A stretch of DNA of 64,000 bases, from NCBI GenBank assembly GCA_965223845.1, contig CBDCXR010000004.1, forward strand, positions 2,912,001 to 2,976,000, in the 5' to 3' direction. Numbering within the stretch: the stretch's first letter is position 1; the number at the start of each line of letters is the position of its first letter. The notes under the pieces are model-generated. The model worked only from the letters and a program-made list of their open reading frames with translations, ran no database searches and was not told where the DNA came from. Positions 8,510-18,143 of the stretch are shown one piece after another. The stretch is from Planctomycetota bacterium. Lineage in GTDB: Bacteria > Planctomycetota > UBA8108 > SXIK01. A program made the position numbers and the translations under genes.

Positions 8510-11500
8510 CTACTCGACCGGCCCGTCCGAGGCAGATCGCACTTCCAGCCCCGACACGATCGCGACGTCGCGATCGGGTACGAAGCGGATATCGAGCGAA
8601 CCGTCCTCCACTTGAACCAGAAACTCGCGCTGCCTCGGCACGCCGAAGCCGGCACTCTCCAGCTCGTAGTCGTCGATCGATCGCGCCCCCTCGATGAAAA
8701 CGTCGAATCGCCTCGGCTCCCGAGTTCCGAGCACGATCTCCGCGAAGTGAAGGGTCACTCGATAACGTCCTCCTTTCACCGGAATGCGGTAGCCGGAGAA
8801 ATGCGCGCCGCCCGCGAACTGTCGCACCGATCGATGGAGCGCGATTCGATCCGAATCGTCGCCGGCGAGTTGCGGGCGCGCATACGTCTTGCCGCCGTGA
8901 AAGAACTGGTCCGCGGCCCATTTCGTGCCGCTCGACTCCTCGAAAGCCGCACCACCCGAGTTCAGGCGGAATGGCACATCGACGTGCCTGCCGGACGAGG
9001 ATTCACCGTGACTCCGATCGGGAGCACGATCCCGTTCGAGTCCGAGACGTTCGACGAGGTAGGCCGGAGCGTCGGGAAGACGGAGCGCCTCGCGAAGGAC
9101 GTCCGACGCCTCGGCCTCGCGCCCCGACACGCGGAGCGCCTCGCCCAGGACGGAGAGAACACTCGGATCGGACCGCGCCGTGGCGTCGACCGCCGCCGCA
9201 GCACTCGCGAGCGCGCCGGAGACGTCGTTCGGGCTTCGTCCGAAGAGCCGGGACGCCGCGAGCATGGCGAGAGCCGCCGGCTCCGTCGAGCGTGGCGCGG
9301 CGCCGTCACCGCGGTGAGATCGCAAGCCCGCGCCCAGTCGGTCCCACTCCGCCTCGAATCGGCCGTCTCTGCCGAGACGATGCTGGAGCGAGGCGAGTCG
9401 CGGCAGCAGCCAGCCGCGCGCGCGATTCTCAAGGACCGCGTCGACCCCGGTGGAAAACGCCTCGGCATAGCGACCCAGTCGCTCGAGCGCCCAGACCAAG
9501 TCGGCGACGGCTCGGTCGTAACTCGGATCGAGCTCCACCGCGCGGCGAAGGGATCGCAGGCCGGCATCGCTCTCGCCGAGGCGAAGTTGAAGAAGGCCGA
9601 GCTCGCGATGGGCTCCGGCGTCCGTCGCATCGAGCTCGACCGCGGCGAGCAGCGAATTAGCTGCTTCGGCCGGGCTGCCGTTCGCCGCCAGCGCCTGAGC
9701 CAATACCCGGTACGTCGACGTCCGGGGATCCGATGCGACGGACTCGCGAGCAACCTCGATCGCTTGATCGAACTGCCCTCGAGCGAGAAGGAGCCGACTC
9801 AGCTCGTAGCGCAGACGAAGGGATCGATGACGAGGATTTCCGCCCGCGATCTTCGCCGCAGCGCGGTACGTGTCCACCGCTTCGCGGAATCTCCCCCGGC
9901 GCTTGAAATGCCGAGCCAGGTGGAAGATCCACCGCGGTTCTTCGGGGCTCACCGCGATCGCGCGCTCAAAGTAATCCTCCGCGCGCGTCCAATCACCCTC
10001 CATCTCGTAGGCTGCCCCTAAGAGGCAGAGGGTCGCATCTCGACCCGGATTGAGCTCGTCTGCACGGTGAATGATCGTGAGGGCGTCTCGAATGCCCCCC
10101 CCCGACTTCGCGACCTTGAGCAGCGCCGCGCCCAGAGAATGGTGCAGTCGCGCATTGTCGGGAAATCGTGCGATTCCTTCGCGCCCGACGCGCACGGCCT
10201 CGTCGTAACGTCCGAGGAGATAGTTAAAGCTGGTCCGCAGCGCGAAGCTGAGTGACGCGTCGGTGCTCTTTCCGATCCATCGGAGTCCCTCTTCGTACTC
10301 GCGGTGAAACTTGTAGAACCCCGTCACCCAAGTGACGATCTCGTTCCGGAACTTCGGTTGGTGCTCGAACGCCTCTCCGAAGGTCCGGGCCGTTTCTTTC
10401 GGCTCCCCCTTCTCGAAGTAAGCCATCCCGAGGAGCAGCCTCGGTTCGACCGCGTCGGGCCAAATCGTAGTCGCCGCGATGAGCATCTCGACGGCTTCGG
10501 AAAGGCGGTCCGATTTCAGCAGTGCCGAGGCACCGCCGAGATAAAACTCGATGTCCGCCCCGAGGAACGGCTCCCCTTCGCTCTTCGAAACGTCGATGAG
10601 GCGCTTGTACGCGCTCGCGGCAACCGGCCAGTCCGACGCGCGGCTCGCTTGATAGGCCTCGAGCCAGAGCTCGCCCCATGCCGAGGCAGTTTTGGCCAAA
10701 GACGCCCGGGAGCGACCGAGCTCGACGTCGCGCAGAATTCGTGCGGGGACGAGACCGGAATCGAGCCGGAGTGCCTCGTCGAGGTCCTCGAGGGCCGCAT
10801 CTCCCCGACCTAAAAGACGAAGCCCGCGCGCCCGATGGAGGAACGCCTCCGCCCGTCGCGGATCGACGGCGATCGCATCACCGAGGCGCTTCAGCGCATC
10901 TTCGAGGGGAAGCAATCCCTCGCTCGGGAGAAGCGCGCTGCGCCAAACCCGTTCGGCGGACTGCCGCGGCGACGAGTTCGTTTCACTGTGGGCTCGCACC
11001 GTCTCGCCCGTCCACGCGTCGAGCGCCATCGCTCCGAGATGGAGCTGCATGACGGCTTCCTCGACTTCACTTCGGTACCTCCGTGCGGTTTCGAGCTCGC
11101 GCGAACTGCGATAGTTCCAGACCAGCAGACTCGAAGTGACGGCCAAGAGGACGATCGATGCCGAAAGCACGAGCTGCCGCCGGTTCTGCCAGGCACGACG
11201 TAGAATCGACTCCCACGCCGGGGGCACTCTCGCCTCGATGGGGTCTCCTCGAGAGAACCGTCTCAAGTCTTGGCCTAGCGCCTCCGCCGTTCGGTAGCGG
11301 TCGCTCGCGCTCTTCGCCATGCACCGCAGGACGATGGTCTCGAGGTCTTTGGGGACTCGAGGACTGATCGAGCGAATTCGCCGCGCGTCACGAGTGATCA
11401 CTTGGCTGAGAGTGTCCGCGTGGTCCTTCCCGCGAAACGGTGGCTCGCCCGTGAACGTTTCGTACATGGTCGCGCCGAGAGAATAGATATCGGTGCGGTG

Positions 11501-12325
11501 GTCGATCGGAATCCTTCGGCGCCGCGCCTGCTCCGGGCTCATGTACTGGGGAGTCCCGACGAAGTCGCCCGACTGCGTGAGCGACTCTTGGCCTTCGAGC
11601 CGTGCGAGTCCGAAGTCGAGGATTCGCAAGCGTTGCTGCGCGTCGAGAATCAGGTTCGACGGCTTGATATCGCGGTGGATAACACCCTTTCCGTGCGCGT
11701 GCTGCAGGCCGTCGGCAACCTCCGCGAAGATTCGAGCCAGACTGCCGAAATAAGAGACGTCGTCCTTTCTCCCAAAGGTCGTGACGCTCTCCGGATCTGC
11801 CTCCCTCAATCGCTCGAGGACGCGCGCCAAGGTCTCGCCCTCGACGTATTCCATCGCGAAGTAGGGAGTGTGTTCCTTGAGACCGACGCCGTACACGGGG
11901 ACGACGTTCGGGTGACTCAGCTTTCCCGCAGTCCGCGCCTCGCGCATGAATCGGCTGAACGCTTTGTCGTCCGCGGCTACGCCGGCAGGGAGGACCTTGA
12001 GGGCGACGGCGCGATCCATCGAGTTTTCCCATGCCTCGTACACGACTCCCATACCGCCGCGACCGAGTGGGCGCTGAAGGACGTAGTCTCCGAGAGTGCC
12101 CAGCGAGCGATGCGGCGTACCGCCTCCCAGCGCGCCATCGAAAACTCGGAGTTGGTCGACGAGGTCATCGGCAAGATGCGGATAGTCGCGCCGTACGTCC
12201 TCCACGCGGATCGCTTCGCCTGCGGTGAGCCTCTCGACGTACTCGGCGAAAACCATCTCGAGCTCGGAAAGTCCGTCGCTCGATCCTCCCGAGATGCCGT
12301 CGAACGGATCGGAATCATCGAACAT
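8510..12325 (-). CDS. Hanks-type Ser/Thr protein kinase with TM helix, TPR repeats and C-terminal malectin domain
   Basis: GRGGMGVVY, VALK, HRDIKPSN, DFG, GTPQYMSPE; TM LVLSASIVLLAVTSSLLVW; many TPRs; malectin motifs FRLNSGG...WAADQFF...YRVTLHFAEI...RRFDVFIEG...AIVSGLEV. Confidence 0.92.
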   Translation of the reverse strand: MFDDSDPFDGISGGSSDGLSELEMVFAEYVERLTAGEAIRVEDVRRDYPHLADDLVDQLRVFDGALGGGTPHRSLGTLGDYVLQRPLGRGGMGVVYEAWENSMDRAVALKVLPAGVAADDKAFSRFMREARTAGKLSHPNVVPVYGVGLKEHTPYFAMEYVEGETLARVLERLREADPESVTTFGRKDDVSYFGSLARIFAEVADGLQHAHGKGVIHRDIKPSNLILDAQQRLRILDFGLARLEGQESLTQSGDFVGTPQYMSPEQARRRRIPIDHRTDIYSLGATMYETFTGEPPFRGKDHADTLSQVITRDARRIRSISPRVPKDLETIVLRCMAKSASDRYRTAEALGQDLRRFSRGDPIEARVPPAWESILRRAWQNRRQLVLSASIVLLAVTSSLLVWNYRSSRELETARRYRSEVEEAVMQLHLGAMALDAWTGETVRAHSETNSSPRQSAERVWRSALLPSEGLLPLEDALKRLGDAIAVDPRRAEAFLHRARGLRLLGRGDAALEDLDEALRLDSGLVPARILRDVELGRSRASLAKTASAWGELWLEAYQASRASDWPVAASAYKRLIDVSKSEGEPFLGADIEFYLGGASALLKSDRLSEAVEMLIAATTIWPDAVEPRLLLGMAYFEKGEPKETARTFGEAFEHQPKFRNEIVTWVTGFYKFHREYEEGLRWIGKSTDASLSFALRTSFNYLLGRYDEAVRVGREGIARFPDNARLHHSLGAALLKVAKSGGGIRDALTIIHRADELNPGRDATLCLLGAAYEMEGDWTRAEDYFERAIAVSPEEPRWIFHLARHFKRRGRFREAVDTYRAAAKIAGGNPRHRSLRLRYELSRLLLARGQFDQAIEVARESVASDPRTSTYRVLAQALAANGSPAEAANSLLAAVELDATDAGAHRELGLLQLRLGESDAGLRSLRRAVELDPSYDRAVADLVWALERLGRYAEAFSTGVDAVLENRARGWLLPRLASLQHRLGRDGRFEAEWDRLGAGLRSHRGDGAAPRSTEPAALAMLAASRLFGRSPNDVSGALASAAAAVDATARSDPSVLSVLGEALRVSGREAEASDVLREALRLPDAPAYLVERLGLERDRAPDRSHGESSSGRHVDVPFRLNSGGAAFEESSGTKWAADQFFHGGKTYARPQLAGDDSDRIALHRSVRQFAGGAHFSGYRIPVKGGRYRVTLHFAEIVLGTREPRRFDVFIEGARSIDDYELESAGFGVPRQREFLVQVEDGSLDIRFVPDRDVAIVSGLEVRSASDGPVE

Positions 12326-12935
12326 CTTGTTTCTCCGCGCCTTCGAGCCTGCGATCGGGAAGAGTGAGACTCTCGGTATCTCCGAACGCGCTCTTCAGCT
12401 GCTTGAGCGCCCGGTAGAGGAGCTGCTTCACCGCGTCCGGTGAGCGCCCCATCCGCCGCGCGACCGCGCTAAAGGACAGGCCGTCTACGCGGGTGAGGAG
12501 AATGACTTGCCGGTGGTCGGGGTCGAGCCGAGCGAGGGATTCCTCCAGTCGATCGAAACGCTCGCCCCGCCTGAGCTCGCTGCTCGGCGAAACGAGTTCG
12601 TCGGGAACATCCTCCTCGAGTGGCGCCCGACGCTCGCGCGCCGCTCGTCGCGCCGACTCGAGAACGACGTTTTCGGCGATCTTGCCGACCCAGCGAAAGA
12701 GGGAGTCTTCCCCGCGCCACTCGAAGCGCTGAATCGACCGAAAGCTGCGAAGGAGCGTTTCCTGGTACACGTCGTCGAACTCGATTCCGAGGGCTAGATA
12801 CGCATTCACCCGCGAAGCCACGACACCTCGGAAACGGCTCGCCTCCGTCCGCACGAGAAGTTCGAACGACTCGCGGTTTCCCGACTGAGCGGACGTCACG
12901 AGCGTTCGGATGTCTTGGGGGGCTTCCATTTGCAT
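12315..12935 (-). CDS. ECF RNA polymerase sigma-70 factor
   Basis: Region 2 (DDVYQETLLRSF...LFRWVGKIAEN) and region 4 (LDPDHRQVILL...LSFSAVARRMGRSPDAVKQLLYRA). Overlaps the kinase start by 11 nt. Confidence 0.92.
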   Translation of the reverse strand: MQMEAPQDIRTLVTSAQSGNRESFELLVRTEASRFRGVVASRVNAYLALGIEFDDVYQETLLRSFRSIQRFEWRGEDSLFRWVGKIAENVVLESARRAARERRAPLEEDVPDELVSPSSELRRGERFDRLEESLARLDPDHRQVILLTRVDGLSFSAVARRMGRSPDAVKQLLYRALKQLKSAFGDTESLTLPDRRLEGAEKQDVR

Positions 12936-12977: not shown

Positions 12978-14387
12978 TCAGTTCGGCGCGGCTTCGAATC
13001 CGCCGCACGCCGGTTGGCTCTCGCACGAGAGCGAATCTCGCGTGGGATCGCGGCCACACGCCGCTGCACCCGGTGCAGGCACCACGCGGCCGTCGAGAAA
13101 GAGCCAGTTGAGGGCGAAGATCGGATCGGAGAGCGTCACTCGTCCGTCGTCGTCGACGTCCGCAGCGTCTCTGCAGCCCGGTTCGTCTCCGTCCAGAAAC
13201 AACCAATTGAGCGTGTACAACGAATCGGAAAGAACGACCTGTCCGTCGCCGTCGGAATCCCCGCGCCGGAAGAGCGGTGAAGCGTCCGGGCGCTCGGTGA
13301 GCTTGGCGAGGTACTGCTCGGAGCGCGGGCCGCTCGTCCCGAAGACGACGTAGTCGCCGGCAGAAGTGAGCGCGAGAGATGGACTGCGGTCGACCTTCTC
13401 CGTGCCGAACACTTTCTCCCAGACGAGCTCACCCGCGGGATCCGTTCGGACCATGTAGAACTCCGTCGTGTCGAGTTCGCGAAAAATCGTCCATCCGACC
13501 GCCACGACCCCGCCGTCGGGAGCCGGGACGACCGAGCAGCCGCGAGCAGTTCCTGCTCCGGCGAACAACTTCTCCCAGACGACGTCGCCCCACTCCGGGC
13601 CGGTCCGGAGAACGAACATCGCTTCCGAAGCCGCAAATCCGACGACGACGAATCCGCCGTCCGGCATCTCCCGCACCGCCTTGCCGACGAATGGACGCCC
13701 TCGAGGGAACGTGGTCTCGCGCAGGAGCTCCCCCTCGCCGCTGACGAGGACAAGGTAAACACTGTCCCCGCGAGTGCCCGCGAGAATCAGATTCCCGTCG
13801 CGCGTCTCCTGGACCGAATTGACGGTGGAGTCCTCGTCGCCATCGTAGACCTCCTCCCAATGAAGGTCGCCGTCGCCGTCTGTCTTGGCGAGATAAGCGC
13901 GCCGATCCCGCGGACCATCGATCGCCGTCCGCCCGGCGACGACGTAGCCGCCGTCCGAAGTTTCGACCACGTCGAAGCCGGCGGTTTCCGCCTCCCGTTC
14001 GCCGATCCACTCCCACAGGAGCTCGCCGTCGCCGTCCGTCTTGAAGAGCCGCACGGCCAGCAGATCGTCCGCGCGGGGGATCGAGCCGCCGACAATAAAG
14101 CCGCCATCCGCGGTCTCGCGGACTCCCGATCCGGGGTAGAGCGGACCGTCGTAAGTCTTGGCCCAGACAATGTTCCCTTCGGAGTCCGTCCGAATTAGCC
14201 GCTCGCCGACGGCGATGAAACCCCCGTTCGTCGTGGGCTGCACGGTACCGTCGCCGTGGGAGATCCCGGGGCCGAGCCAGCGCTCCCATTCGACCTCCGG
14301 CGGCTCGGCCCCTCGAGCGGGTCCGCCGACGGTGACGAACGAGAGAACAGAGATCAGCCCGATCGAGTACGACCCGTGGCGAAACAT
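12978..14387 (-). CDS. Secreted beta-propeller-like repeat protein with dockerin-like tail
   Basis: Signal peptide; repeated T.DGG(F/Y)..G...KTD.DG.L.W motifs; C-terminal FRRGDSDGDGQVVLSD...DAADVDDDGRVTLSD...CGRDPT. Confidence 0.75.
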   Translation of the reverse strand: MFRHGSYSIGLISVLSFVTVGGPARGAEPPEVEWERWLGPGISHGDGTVQPTTNGGFIAVGERLIRTDSEGNIVWAKTYDGPLYPGSGVRETADGGFIVGGSIPRADDLLAVRLFKTDGDGELLWEWIGEREAETAGFDVVETSDGGYVVAGRTAIDGPRDRRAYLAKTDGDGDLHWEEVYDGDEDSTVNSVQETRDGNLILAGTRGDSVYLVLVSGEGELLRETTFPRGRPFVGKAVREMPDGGFVVVGFAASEAMFVLRTGPEWGDVVWEKLFAGAGTARGCSVVPAPDGGVVAVGWTIFRELDTTEFYMVRTDPAGELVWEKVFGTEKVDRSPSLALTSAGDYVVFGTSGPRSEQYLAKLTERPDASPLFRRGDSDGDGQVVLSDSLYTLNWLFLDGDEPGCRDAADVDDDGRVTLSDPIFALNWLFLDGRVVPAPGAAACGRDPTRDSLSCESQPACGGFEAAPN

Positions 14388-14596: not shown

Positions 14597-14643
14597 AAAA
14601 AAACGTCCCGCGATCGGGCGATGGATCGCTCGATCGCGGGACG
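14597..14643 (-). terminator. Rho-independent terminator of the TlpA-like gene
   Basis: Hairpin CGTCCCGCGATCGGGCGAT / ATCGCTCGATCGCGGGACG (14604-14643) followed on the minus strand by a run of 7 T. Confidence 0.8.
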
Positions 14644-14682
14644 CAGCTCACCGGAGCCGGCGGCGTCGGATCGCCTCGGCGG

Positions 14683-16074
14683 CTACTCTTCGAGGAGCCG
14701 CTTCAGCTCGTTCTCGAGCTCTTCGAGCCCGACGCCGATCTTGTGGTACCGGACGTTTCCACTCTTATCGACGAGGAACGTGGTCGGATAGAACCGGACG
14801 CCGAACGCCGCGGCCTCGTCGGCGCCGCCCATGAGCACGGTTTGCTTGAGCTCCTTCTCCTTGACGAACTTCTCGACGACGGGTTTCGGATTCTCCCACG
14901 TGTGCACCGCGACGACTTCAACTCCCTTAGCCCGGTACTTTTCCCCAAGCTTGCTGAGGTGCGGAGCCTCCGCACGACAAGGTCCTCACCCGTAGCCCCA
15001 GAAGTTGAGGATGCTCACCTTGCCCTTTCGCTTGGCGGCGAAGTCGTAGTCGTGGCCCGCGAGGTCGGGAAGCTGGATCGCCGGAGCGGCGCGACCGAGG
15101 ACTTTCTTGAGCGCAGCCCCCTCGGCCGACGATTCGTAGAGTTGCGCGTAGGCGCGGACGCGACTCTCGAACGCCGCGGCGAGTGGTGCCACCGGCGTGT
15201 CCTCGGCCGACTTCGAGAACGTTTCGACGACCTTGGCGAGCTCGTCCGACGACGCGCTGCGGGTATCGAAGGAGGTTCCGATCGTCTCCGCCTTCGCGAG
15301 AAGCTCGGCCCACGCGGGAGCGGAATCCCCGGTGTAGGCGACCGAGCTCTTCGCGGCTAGCTTCAGCGTGCGATCGAGAACGACCGGATCGCCTCCGCCC
15401 GGCGAAAACTCGAAGCCGGCGTGATGCTCGATCGCGGCGATCACACCGTCCGTCCCGAGAACGTAACGCTCCGAGTATGCTCGGACGGTGGCTTCCTGAC
15501 CATTGAACGAGAAAACCGTATCCTTCCCGCCCGTAAGCTCGCGCGTGACAACGACCTGATCCCCGGACTTCTCGACCTTCGTCACGAGGTCGGCGGTCGC
15601 CCAGCCGACGTTCAAGACGTGGAGCGACTCGGTCGAGCGTGCGCTCGTCCCTTCGGCCGGAAGGGCCGCGAGCGGAAGCGCGAGCGGAAAAAACACGCCG
15701 AGCGTGTGGTTCTCGTCGCTCCCCGCGGTCTCGAAGTCGCGCGGCCCGTGGGGACGGAGCACGGTAGAGCCAGCCTTCCGGGACACCGTCCAATGTTCGA
15801 TCGCCCCCTGCCGGCCGTCCTCATCCTCGAGCACCCGCGCGGTGAGGAGCGGCGTCCGTTCGTTCGCAGAGCTCCCGGTGAGAAGCACCAGTGTCGCGTC
15901 GTACTCGACGTTGAGCTCGTTGTCGCCGTGTTTTTGCAGCAGGGTCGCCTTTCCGGCCAGGGTCGCGAGTCGGTCCGGCTTGAGCTCGAGCCCCGGCGCG
16001 GCACTCGTCGGCGAGGCGAGGAAGAGTGTGGCCACCACCGCGAGGGCGGCAGCGGCGGTCGACACCGGACGCAT
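14683..16074 (-). CDS. Exported TlpA/ResA-like thiol-disulfide oxidoreductase, predicted selenoprotein (UxxC, in-frame TGA at 14988-14986)
   Basis: ATG 16074 with RBS AAGGAG and signal peptide. APAIQLPDLAG...KGKVSILNFWGYG-TGA-GPCRAEAPHLSKLGEKYRAKGVEVVAV...FGVRFYPTTFLVDKSG is one continuous thioredoxin fold in a single frame (463 aa). Confidence 0.85.
14955..14988 (-). promoter_or_regulatory. Putative bacterial SECIS element
   Basis: TGA-GGACCTTGTC-GTGCGGA-GGC-TCCGCAC-CTCA: 7-bp upper stem with a G-starting apical loop 17 nt after UGA; TGAG can pair with CTCA as a lower stem. Confidence 0.7.
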
Positions 16075-16266
16075 AGCAGATTCTCCTTCTGGTAGAGTTC
16101 TCGGGGAAACGGGCTCGGCGGCGGCGAACGGCGCACCGACACACCAGCCCCGCAGTGTAACGGGAGAACGCGCGCGGCGGTAACTCGGTTCCCGCTCCGG
16201 CGCGGAAAACTGGTATCGTTCGGACGCGGACGACACGTTTGGATCCGTGCTGGCAAGGAGACCACA

Positions 16267-17043
16267 ATGAAGAGGGATGCGGCGGCCGAATTGGCCGGGA
16301 AGGTCGCACTCGTCACCGGCGGGAGCCGAGGGATCGGTCGAGCCATCGCTCAAGCCTTCCTCGAACGGGGTGCGAGCGTGGTCATCACGGGCCGTAAGCG
16401 CGAGTCGCTCGCCAGCGCTCAGGACGAGCTCCACGGGCTGGGTCTCCGGCAGATTCGGACGATCGAGGCGCACAGCGCCGACCCCGAGGCGATGGCGCGC
16501 GTCTTCGACGAAGCCGAGAGCGAGTTCGGAACGGTACAGGTCCTCGTGAACAACGCGGCGACGAATCCGGTGATGACTCCCCTCGCGGAAACCGACCTCA
16601 CGGTCGTCGACAAGATCCTCGCGACGAACGTGCGGGGATATCTGCTCGCGGCGCAGACCGCGGCCGGACGGCTGCGCGAGCACGGAAAGAGCGGGAGCAT
16701 CATCAACGTTTCGTCCGTGGCGTCCCGCCGGGGCTGGCCGGGTCTCGGCGCGTACAGCGTCAGCAAGGCGGCCGTCAACATGATGACGGAGGTCCTCGCG
16801 GCAGAGCTCGGTCCCGCCGGGATCCGCGTCAACGGGATCGCTCCCGGGCTCGTCAAGACGCGCTTCAGTCAGGCACTCTGGGGCGACGCGGCCGCAGCGG
16901 AAGGCGTGACGCAGCGACTCCCGCTCCGTCGACTGGGTGAGCCGACCGATATCGTCGGAGCTGCGGTCTTCCTCGCGTCGGACGCGTCCGCTTACATCAC
17001 CGGGCAGACTCTCGCCGTCGACGGCGGCATGCTCGTCGTGTGA
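16267..17043 (+). CDS. Short-chain dehydrogenase/reductase (SDR)
   Basis: TGGSRGIG, VNNAA, YSVSK (YxxxK), IRVNGIAPG, ITGQTLAVDGG. Confidence 0.93.
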   Translation: MKRDAAAELAGKVALVTGGSRGIGRAIAQAFLERGASVVITGRKRESLASAQDELHGLGLRQIRTIEAHSADPEAMARVFDEAESEFGTVQVLVNNAATNPVMTPLAETDLTVVDKILATNVRGYLLAAQTAAGRLREHGKSGSIINVSSVASRRGWPGLGAYSVSKAAVNMMTEVLAAELGPAGIRVNGIAPGLVKTRFSQALWGDAAAAEGVTQRLPLRRLGEPTDIVGAAVFLASDASAYITGQTLAVDGGMLVV

Positions 17044-17075
17044 CGCCGCGCGCAACCCCGGCCGGCCGAGCGACG

Positions 17076-18143
17076 TCACCAGTCGGGGCGAGTCGTTTTC
17101 AGCTCGACCGCGAGCTCCGGACGAAGCGCGGCACCACCGCCGACGAACACCGCCGCGGCTCCCGCGGCGAAGAACGGTCCTGCGTCCTCGGCGCGGAGGA
17201 CGCCTCCGACCGCGAGCGTCTGAACGTTCAAGCCGAGGCGCCGCGAGCACTCCACCGCGCCGCGAACATTGTCGAGCGCTGGCTCGCCGACCCCGCACCC
17301 GATGATCCCCGCGCGTTCGTGCCCCGGAAACGCGGGTAGACCGTCGGCCGTGTGCACCCGGCGCGCGACTCCGTTCACGATGACGACTCCGTCCGCGGCG
17401 CCGTCCACCGCACGGTAGAAAGCTTCGAGGCGCTTCGGATCCGCGAAGTGACCCGCCTTGATGAGGAGAGGCGTCGACGGGAGCGCGTCGCGAAGCGCAA
17501 GCGTGAGCAGTCCGCTCGACTCAGCGCTTTGGTAGATGCTCCCCTCCGCCGAGCAGACATTCGGACAGGAGTAGTTCGCCTCGACGATGTCCGCCCCCGC
17601 CGCCGCGGCTCGTCGCGCACAGTCGACGTAGTCCGCGACGAGTGCATCGAATCCGCCGTCACCGGGGGTGCCGACGACGCTCACGATGAGGACTTGGCCC
17701 GCACCGAGAGCCGCCTTCGCTCGCCCGACGTCTCGCGCCCACTCTTCGGGTGGCATCGACGGCATCCCGAAGCACACCGACGACGTTGTCCGAAGCGGAT
17801 CGCGAGGCGCGCGAGCGCTCACGACGAGCGGGACGTCCGCATCCGCGGCTCCGAGCCCCTCGGGAGGGAGGTCGACGTATACCCAGTTCGGCAGCGGATA
17901 ACAGGGCCGAGCCGCGCTCCGCACCGATTTGTATGTGAGGAGGTCGAATCCCCAACGAGCGTAACGCTCCACCCAGCGCGAGTTGAGGAGGATGCCCGCG
18001 GCGATCCCGAATCGGGAGGCGACCGAGAACCCGAAAAAGTCCTTTCGCGGCGTCTCCGGGACAGAGGGCGCCTCATCGGGAAGCTGCGGTCCGTTCTTGT
18101 AGTTCCAGAGGTAGCTGCGATCTCGCCGGTAGGAATTGGGCAT
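17076..18143 (-). CDS. Dihydroorotate dehydrogenase-like FMN TIM-barrel protein
   Basis: GIAAG, TYKSV, EANYSCPN catalytic loop, PLLIK, AVGGV...AGA. Confidence 0.7.
   Translation of the reverse strand: MPNSYRRDRSYLWNYKNGPQLPDEAPSVPETPRKDFFGFSVASRFGIAAGILLNSRWVERYARWGFDLLTYKSVRSAARPCYPLPNWVYVDLPPEGLGAADADVPLVVSARAPRDPLRTTSSVCFGMPSMPPEEWARDVGRAKAALGAGQVLIVSVVGTPGDGGFDALVADYVDCARRAAAAGADIVEANYSCPNVCSAEGSIYQSAESSGLLTLALRDALPSTPLLIKAGHFADPKRLEAFYRAVDGAADGVVIVNGVARRVHTADGLPAFPGHERAGIIGCGVGEPALDNVRGAVECSRRLGLNVQTLAVGGVLRAEDAGPFFAAGAAAVFVGGGAALRPELAVELKTTRPDW

Follow-up and report, generated by a model that had tools for sequence, protein, structure and literature searches.

Gene layout of the interrupted redoxin

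The window analysed here, a stretch of 64,000 nucleotides (nt) from a Planctomycetota genome (contig CBDCXR010000004.1, positions 2,912,001 to 2,976,000), holds on its minus strand a gene in which a TGA codon falls at the active site of a thioredoxin-like domain. The locus raises the question of whether this TGA terminates translation or is decoded as selenocysteine (Sec, U), and what kind of protein results. We consider it very probable that the gene encodes one exported two-domain selenoprotein, a ResA/TlpA-type reductase with Sec at UGA-363.

In the list of open reading frames (ORFs) the gene appears as two minus-strand pieces, 14986..17298 and 14683..14907, which, as the initial annotation had noticed, belong to one frame and are split only by the TGA. 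When this codon is translated as U, the frame starting from the ATG at 16074 yields 463 residues with a single U at residue 363 in the context NFWGYG-U-GPC, and the TGA (14986-14988) is its sole interruption before the TAG at 14683-14685. Most of the 770-codon ORF 14986-17298 is an artefact of high G+C; its upstream part of ~400 codons runs antisense to an SDR gene, and the real gene extends only from 16074 downwards. The features of the gene are as follows (all on the minus strand).

14683..16074, complete predicted selenoprotein gene of 463 codons, closed by the TAG stop and containing a single in-frame TGA
16083..16088, Shine-Dalgarno-like AAGGAG, 8 nt upstream of the ATG, as read from the sequence
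16000..16074, putative signal peptide, residues 1-25, in which a hydrophobic stretch stands between MRP and TSAA (by eye)
15100..15999, N-terminal domain, residues 26-325, for which searches of Pfam, NCBIfam and the PDB sequences gave no described family
14686..15099, ResA/TlpA-like redoxin domain spanning residues 326-463 and including U363-G-P-C366, E369 and the cis-Pro pair P430-T431
14986..14988, UGA codon predicted to specify Sec, residue 363 (conserved column, Cys in some relatives)
14959..14975, predicted selenocysteine insertion sequence (SECIS) hairpin with a 7-bp stem, GUGCGGA/UCCGCAC, and a GGC loop, beginning 10 nt past the UGA
14597..14644, intrinsic terminator, made up of a long G+C-rich hairpin and, behind it, seven consecutive U (the latter read from the sequence)

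The signal peptide proposed earlier is retained as a putative one, a hydrophobic N-terminus being visible by eye at the start of all 15 aligned homologs. The cis-Pro motif FYPTTFLVD is present in the redoxin domain, and the TAG and the terminator follow it as had been described; the terminator region (91 nt) folds with -53.1 kcal/mol (z -4.98, none of 200 shuffles being as stable), and the simple terminator scan missed it because of its long loop. A simple promoter scan of the locus gave no match, and an Rfam search returned nothing relevant. The whole 1601-nt stretch was found in single contigs of four public runs with 0 differences, although these runs represent two samples of one study and are possibly the assembly's own source. 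All four agree with TGA at 14986-14988, and none showed the TGC, TGT or TGG that the initial annotation had named as a sign against recoding. No RNA data were listed among the public runs carrying the stretch.

Conservation of the UGA codon and of the downstream hairpin

When 60 relatives were searched in six frames, many of the matches obtained contained exactly one TGA. In 20 loci from 20 genomes one TGA was present in the same column without exception (FW[GA]xx-U-G[PA]C), and the redoxin frame went on past it, one locus being ended by its contig just after the motif and another being open upstream. The same layout and TGA recurred in 12 out of 12 further loci (12 genomes from other families of the same class), mostly with the motif FWGY[ST]-U-GxCRAE[AS]PHL and with the variants FWGYA-U-PSC and FWAYL-U-GSC. 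Altogether, 32 loci from 32 genomes share the architecture and the TGA column at a divergence of about 20-35% identity, and the two halves, which might have proved to be separate genes elsewhere, are kept in one frame throughout. Downstream of U the alignment columns C366, R367, E369, P371, P430 and T431 are invariant; in a set of 27 sequences U/C363, C366, P430 and T431 do not vary and align with the ResA motif and its PT loop.

Four forms carry Cys in the Sec column: two genomic copies (G001:C182 and G002:C891, loci L040 and L041) and the library proteins P0028 and P0033. The two genomic copies are full-length, stop-free relatives with the motifs FWGYGCGPC and FWGYGCPPC, and both genomes carry a Sec copy besides; in all other genomes the gene is single-copy. 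A maximum-likelihood tree built from 18 Sec and three Cys sequences places the Cys forms among the Sec forms, and the Cys state amounts to two changes, the direction of which is left undefined by the midpoint root. In seven moderately close pairs the codons past the TGA gave a ratio of nonsynonymous to synonymous changes (pN/pS) of 0.16-0.39, not exceeding the 0.21-0.61 obtained for the 100 codons that precede it; judged from these comparisons, the codons past the TGA are under purifying selection.

The hairpin GUGCGGA-GGC-UCCGCAC, reported previously from the letters of the sequence, was located at 14975-14959, ten nt after the UGA. When three duplicates and the contig-cut locus were dropped, all 112 cells of the 7-bp helix paired in the remaining 16 distinct sequences, and two pairs changed on both sides. 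With the 12 further loci added, 195 of 196 cells paired in 28 distinct sequences, and compensatory changes were seen at three of the seven pairs (UA/AU, GC/AU, CG/GC/AU), one covarying position being the synonymous third base of a Pro codon. None of 500 shuffles reached the observed covariation score, and sliding the partner strand by 1-3 columns as a control lowered the pairing to 36-66%. The apical loop contains G and reads GGC, GUC or GUU; in one sequence the stem is shortened to 6 bp and the loop widened to 5 nt. Where DNA was available for Cys forms, in two cases, only three and four of the seven positions can pair, although the peptide is nearly the same, so that the stem-loop goes with the TGA rather than with the encoded peptide. 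Taken together, the comparison of homologous sequences indicates that the UGA is decoded and that the covarying hairpin is tied to it.

Selenocysteine machinery and other recoded genes of the genome

The host genome (G000, 7.93 Mb) was found to contain all four genes that the initial annotation had proposed to look for, selA (536 bits), selB (320 bits, 352.7 summed), selC and selD (308 bits), each above the curated cut-off. The tRNA-Sec scored 68.1 bits, above its cut-off, and was read by ARAGORN as SeC with the anticodon tca. SelD is a 784-residue fusion (L017:1390-3744, minus strand; selD locus on G000:C4), whose N-terminal ~440 residues start with a G-G-G-H-S-H dinucleotide-binding-like motif and precede the SelD domain; its active site has Cys (CGGCGAK), not Sec.

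Among the 35 AhpC-TSA-type matches of G000 seven contain an in-frame TGA, in all seven at the active-site position, with these motifs:

FWGHW-U-GPC
F-U-LM-U, with two Sec
FWGYG-U-GPC, the window's own gene
ASW-U-PFC
ASW-U-AGC
VASR-U-G, GPx-like
GKN-U-GPC

A hairpin is predicted 10-20 nt downstream of the TGA in each of these frames. The six others lie outside the window, at G000:C4:339807-340166, 7394122-7394478, 4433395-4433751, 6700085-6700354, 6272189-6272455 and 5691152-5691451, as does an FdhA-like frame with one in-frame TGA (G000:C4:4984214-4984963). The genome thus has at least eight candidate selenoprotein genes with TGA, and, given this multiplicity, the use of Sec is apparently routine in this organism. 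In family f6, which belongs to the same class as the window, a second TGA-containing redoxin gene occurs ~15-20 kb from the ortholog on the same contig (G023:C24, G027:C2, G034:C169, G035:C20, G038:C1, G039:C2, G057:C77 and G030:C76).

The redoxin domain and its known relatives

Residues 327-452 matched the Pfam families Redoxin and AhpC-TSA, with 74.8 and 73.2 bits (cut-offs 26.6 and 26, respectively). A profile of the family searched against PDB gave ResA (4nmu, E 4e-39, residues 323-455), followed by the DsbE-like 3gl3 and other extracytoplasmic reductases, including the Etrx-type, and the top NCBIfam rows were ResA, DsbE, StoA and TlpA, all below their cut-offs. From these matches the redoxin is assigned to the ResA/TlpA family. 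With ResA, DsbE (CcmG) and TlpA (PDB 4nmu, 1st9, 3gl3) it shares the thioredoxin fold, the position of the active-site motif, the Glu three residues past the second Cys and the cis-Pro-Thr loop, as well as, presumably, the extracytoplasmic location, which for the window's protein is putative and judged by eye. Compared with ResA, the first Cys is replaced by Sec, the residue preceding U is Gly and not Trp (FWGYG-U versus FWGTW-C in the alignment with the 4nmu profile), and cytochrome c maturation genes are absent near the gene; unlike ResA, DsbE and TlpA, the protein also has a putative cleavable signal peptide together with an extra N-terminal domain of 300 residues.

A curated family of long ResA-like selenoproteins exists in NCBIfam (NF041054, 'ResA-like WAxxUGC motif-containing protein', WAxxUGC_long), and its redoxin part can be aligned with that of the window's protein (residues 321-440 against model positions 75-193). 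The score of 30.2 bits against a cut-off of 300 places our protein outside this family, and its motif is WGYG-U-GPC.

Sec-containing proteins of this general type have a considerable history. Prx-like and thiol-disulfide-isomerase-like UxxC proteins with Sec were reported in 2004-2005 (PMC1088965), and a 2026 review lists them along with a UGC-containing TlpA family (PMC13188914). Planctomycete candidates named 'thiol-disulfide isomerase-like thioredoxin', 'peroxiredoxin' and 'AhpC/TSA' appear in a 2016 paper (PMC4807772, Table S9), each annotated as two genes. As described there, these families likewise have Sec in the first position of UxxC, a thioredoxin fold and a hairpin just downstream, and they are likewise routinely annotated as two genes or truncated. 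Sec TlpA-like and Prx-like UxxC redoxins are therefore an old and common class, Planctomycetes included. A conserved N-terminal domain of 300 residues is not mentioned for the published Sec redoxin families in the parts of these sources at hand, the families being compared by description only. In the same way, no description of the present two-domain family was found in the portions of the literature searched, and the BSepDB family lists may already contain it.

Competing explanations and the proposed mechanism

Several observations weigh against the proposed selenoprotein reductase. Our argument is built on sequence comparison. The hairpin region taken alone is unremarkable (z -0.45, with 50 of 200 shuffles as stable, in DNA of 65% G+C), its significance coming only from the comparison with relatives, and the 3-nt loop of this predicted SelB site is small. 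Moreover, the hairpin doubles as coding sequence for the conserved peptide R-x-E-A/S-P-H/Y, so that part of its nucleotide conservation is due to protein constraint; what the argument draws upon is the compensatory changes and the fact that the Cys forms have lost the pairing. The compared sequences are related, and the shuffle controls consequently overstate their independence. On the functional side, the score for NCBIfam NF002854 (ResA subfamily) is 83.8 bits against a cut-off of 170, neither a substrate at the locus nor an electron-donor gene adjacent to the gene was identified, genes for cytochrome c maturation are missing from its surroundings, and the sole conserved neighbour encodes a generic SDR, in which no signal peptide was noticed and any functional link to which is conjectural.

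The main functional rival is a thiol peroxidase, that is, a selenoprotein the Sec of which attacks peroxides as in Prx and GPx, instead of reducing disulfides. The two Pfam scores are indeed close (73.2 bits for AhpC-TSA versus 74.8 for Redoxin). Peroxiredoxins are, however, defined by a Thr or Ser three residues ahead of the peroxidatic residue, whereas in the window's protein the residue three before U363 is G360, so the peroxiredoxin motif T/S-x-x-C/U is absent. The motif U-G-P-C is of the thioredoxin type, the best structures are of ResA, DsbE and the Etrx-type with no peroxiredoxin among the top PDB profile rows, and the leading NCBIfam rows likewise name reductases of the ResA, DsbE, StoA and TlpA kind. 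Related Sec families do bear the name 'Prx-like' in PMC13188914 and PMC1088965. On balance we regard a peroxidase as unlikely.

Far less credible is that the TGA is a true stop, and that the locus is either a decaying gene or a pair consisting of a gene for a 362-residue secreted protein and a small redoxin fragment gene. This is exactly what standard gene calling yields, and the unremarkable single-sequence fold of the hairpin region would agree with it, but the part after the TGA would miss the first active-site residue, and no start is possible for it until the GTG at 14907, 26 codons beyond the motif. Furthermore, such a stop is hard to reconcile with the 32 divergent genomes in which the frame, the position of the TGA and the domain behind it are all preserved, with the purifying selection past the TGA, with the continuous Cys forms and with the covarying hairpin. 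Equally improbable is a selenium-free reading of the UGA, by near-cognate insertion of Trp or Cys or by reassignment of TGA in the lineage, which is formally possible with nothing specific to recommend it, since TGA is the ordinary stop of six of the nine genes checked near the locus and terminates several homologs of this very gene, the Sec machinery is complete, the non-TGA forms hold Cys, as is usual for Sec/Cys pairs, and the dedicated hairpin accompanies only the TGA forms.

For the exported ResA/TlpA-type selenoprotein, the following course of events can be proposed. SelB with Sec-tRNA(Sec) would recognise the 7-bp hairpin 10 nt after UGA-363, Sec would be inserted, and the ribosome would carry on through the remaining 100 codons. 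Upon removal of the signal peptide the protein would reside in the periplasm, where the selenolate of U363 would be the attacking nucleophile and C366 the resolving residue, via a selenenyl-sulfide intermediate. Its activity would most likely consist in the reduction of disulfides (or sulfenates) on particular envelope proteins, with re-reduction by a membrane electron shuttle of the CcdA/DsbD type, while the N-terminal domain of ~300 residues would most likely serve to bind or position the substrate and be connected with the redoxin through a helical linker. The reductase direction is preferred because of the U-G-P-C motif, which contains the dipeptide of thioredoxin, and because of the ResA, DsbE and Etrx relatives; export, the redox direction, the electron donor and the function of the N-terminal domain are what we infer here.

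The N-terminal domain

The initial annotation was unable to assign the N-terminal domain, and our searches led to the same result. Neither Pfam nor NCBIfam gave a match, and in Pfam no shared family appeared for 14 members even at E up to 10; in the PDB sequence search there was no match either, the profile touching only the first redoxin strand. The only protein that the N-terminal profile retrieved in a word-index search was that of the window itself. The ESM Atlas gave for this part low scores (0.83, recognition 1919), which lie below the meaningful level and were counted as no result; its labels Vitellogenin_N and DUF6263 came at small shares only and were not used. The aligned homologs have no invariant Cys or His in this domain. 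By a rough propensity estimate it is beta/coil to about residue 235, with about 80% helix for residues 251-325.

A HMMER search with the N-terminal 301 residues against 1.84 billion representatives found 26 relatives at E<=0.001, and the named ones were only metagenome-assembled genomes of Planctomycetota. In an even sample of the phylum (401 genomes), in which families f1, f2, f3 and f6 belong to the window's class, the N-terminal profile matched 10 genomes, namely all sampled members of f1, f2 and f3 and one of f9. The corresponding profile of the second group matched 12 of the 401 genomes, which are all 12 sampled members of f6, and the domain was detected by these profiles in neither of the two sampled f4 genomes. 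Among the sampled genomes the domain is thus confined to the window's class and one other family of the phylum. The two N-terminal profiles are collinear over 156 columns (74% probability, E 2.8e-5), and by this resemblance both groups probably represent one fast-evolving domain.

Fusions of another non-redox domain with a TlpA-like redoxin are known in relatives, namely those of the LolA-like DUF2092 (G033:C94, 451 aa; G014:C542; P0005). In these, too, a signal peptide and an N-terminal domain of the non-redox kind (~250 residues) precede the TlpA-like redoxin, but, unlike the window's Sec protein, they are Cys forms (FWATWCGPC). A LolA-like nature of our N-terminal domain, suggested by the database name of P0005, was rejected, the profile-profile probability being 0.3% and the overlap being limited to the redoxin.

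The closest full-length homolog (L021, G003) has a lipobox-like L-G-A-C at the end of its hydrophobic N-terminus. Some members of the family may accordingly be lipoproteins, to judge by this motif, while the window's copy has no Cys at that site.

A bolder idea, which we put forward as speculation with rather less in its favour than against it, is that the N-terminal 300 residues form a new fold and serve as a lineage-specific substrate-recognition module, which with a nearly obligatory Sec redoxin would make up a dedicated Sec-dependent redox system in the envelope of one Planctomycetota class. If so, the substrate would be an envelope component specific to these bacteria.

Representation in public collections

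The expectation that standard pipelines would truncate the gene was borne out: in a collection of 5.8 billion proteins this protein is stored only as a 362-residue version, and among the 26 library representatives 21 stop one residue before the Sec site, two are Cys forms and three are fragments or frame-shifted. This is a systematic annotation error, by which the whole family stands in public collections without its catalytic domain. With its clear, covarying SECIS the locus is also a strongly supported addition to the Planctomycetota selenoproteome. The Sec redoxin type itself is already known and ranks among the commonest selenoprotein types of bacteria, and the new part is the uncharacterised N-terminal domain.

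Genomic context

Upstream of the gene lies the following neighbour.

16267..17043, plus strand, divergent SDR-family oxidoreductase gene (Pfam adh_short_C2, 216 bits)

It keeps this divergent placement in nine of the 15 other loci that were fetched with flanks, and the intergenic stretch between the two genes, compared across the loci by eye, showed no obvious common motif. With its own terminator and a divergent upstream neighbour, the selenoprotein gene looks monocistronic. No gene for CcdA/DsbD, cytochrome maturation or methionine sulfoxide reductase is adjacent to it, and linkage to resB/resC or ccdA was not seen at the locus. A search of the genome for ResB gave only a weak, sub-threshold match (21.5 bits) away from the locus, and a DsbD_TM/CcdA homolog (96.7 bits) situated about 95 kb from the gene is a possible electron donor.

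In family f2 (L051:3078-6986, with matching stretches in L052-L056) the SDR gene is followed by two conserved genes, one for an FG-GAP repeat protein and the other for a 684-residue protein with ASPIC/UnbV, redoxin and TPR parts. The latter is a second redoxin-bearing envelope protein in the vicinity, and it is absent beside the window's copy.

Just downstream of the selenoprotein gene, at 12978-14387 on the minus strand, a 469-residue secreted protein is encoded, which is rich in D-G-G-F/Y repeats and has at its C-terminal end a pair of D-x-D-G-D-G...L-S-D repeats that by eye recall dockerins or EF-hands; it gave no Pfam or NCBIfam match. Further on, the minus-strand region 8510-12935 comprises an ECF sigma factor gene (12315-12935) that overlaps by 11 nt with a kinase gene (8510-12325), the product of which (1271 residues) combines a Ser/Thr kinase with TPR repeats and carries a malectin domain at its C-terminus; these two genes are probably a co-transcribed signalling pair.

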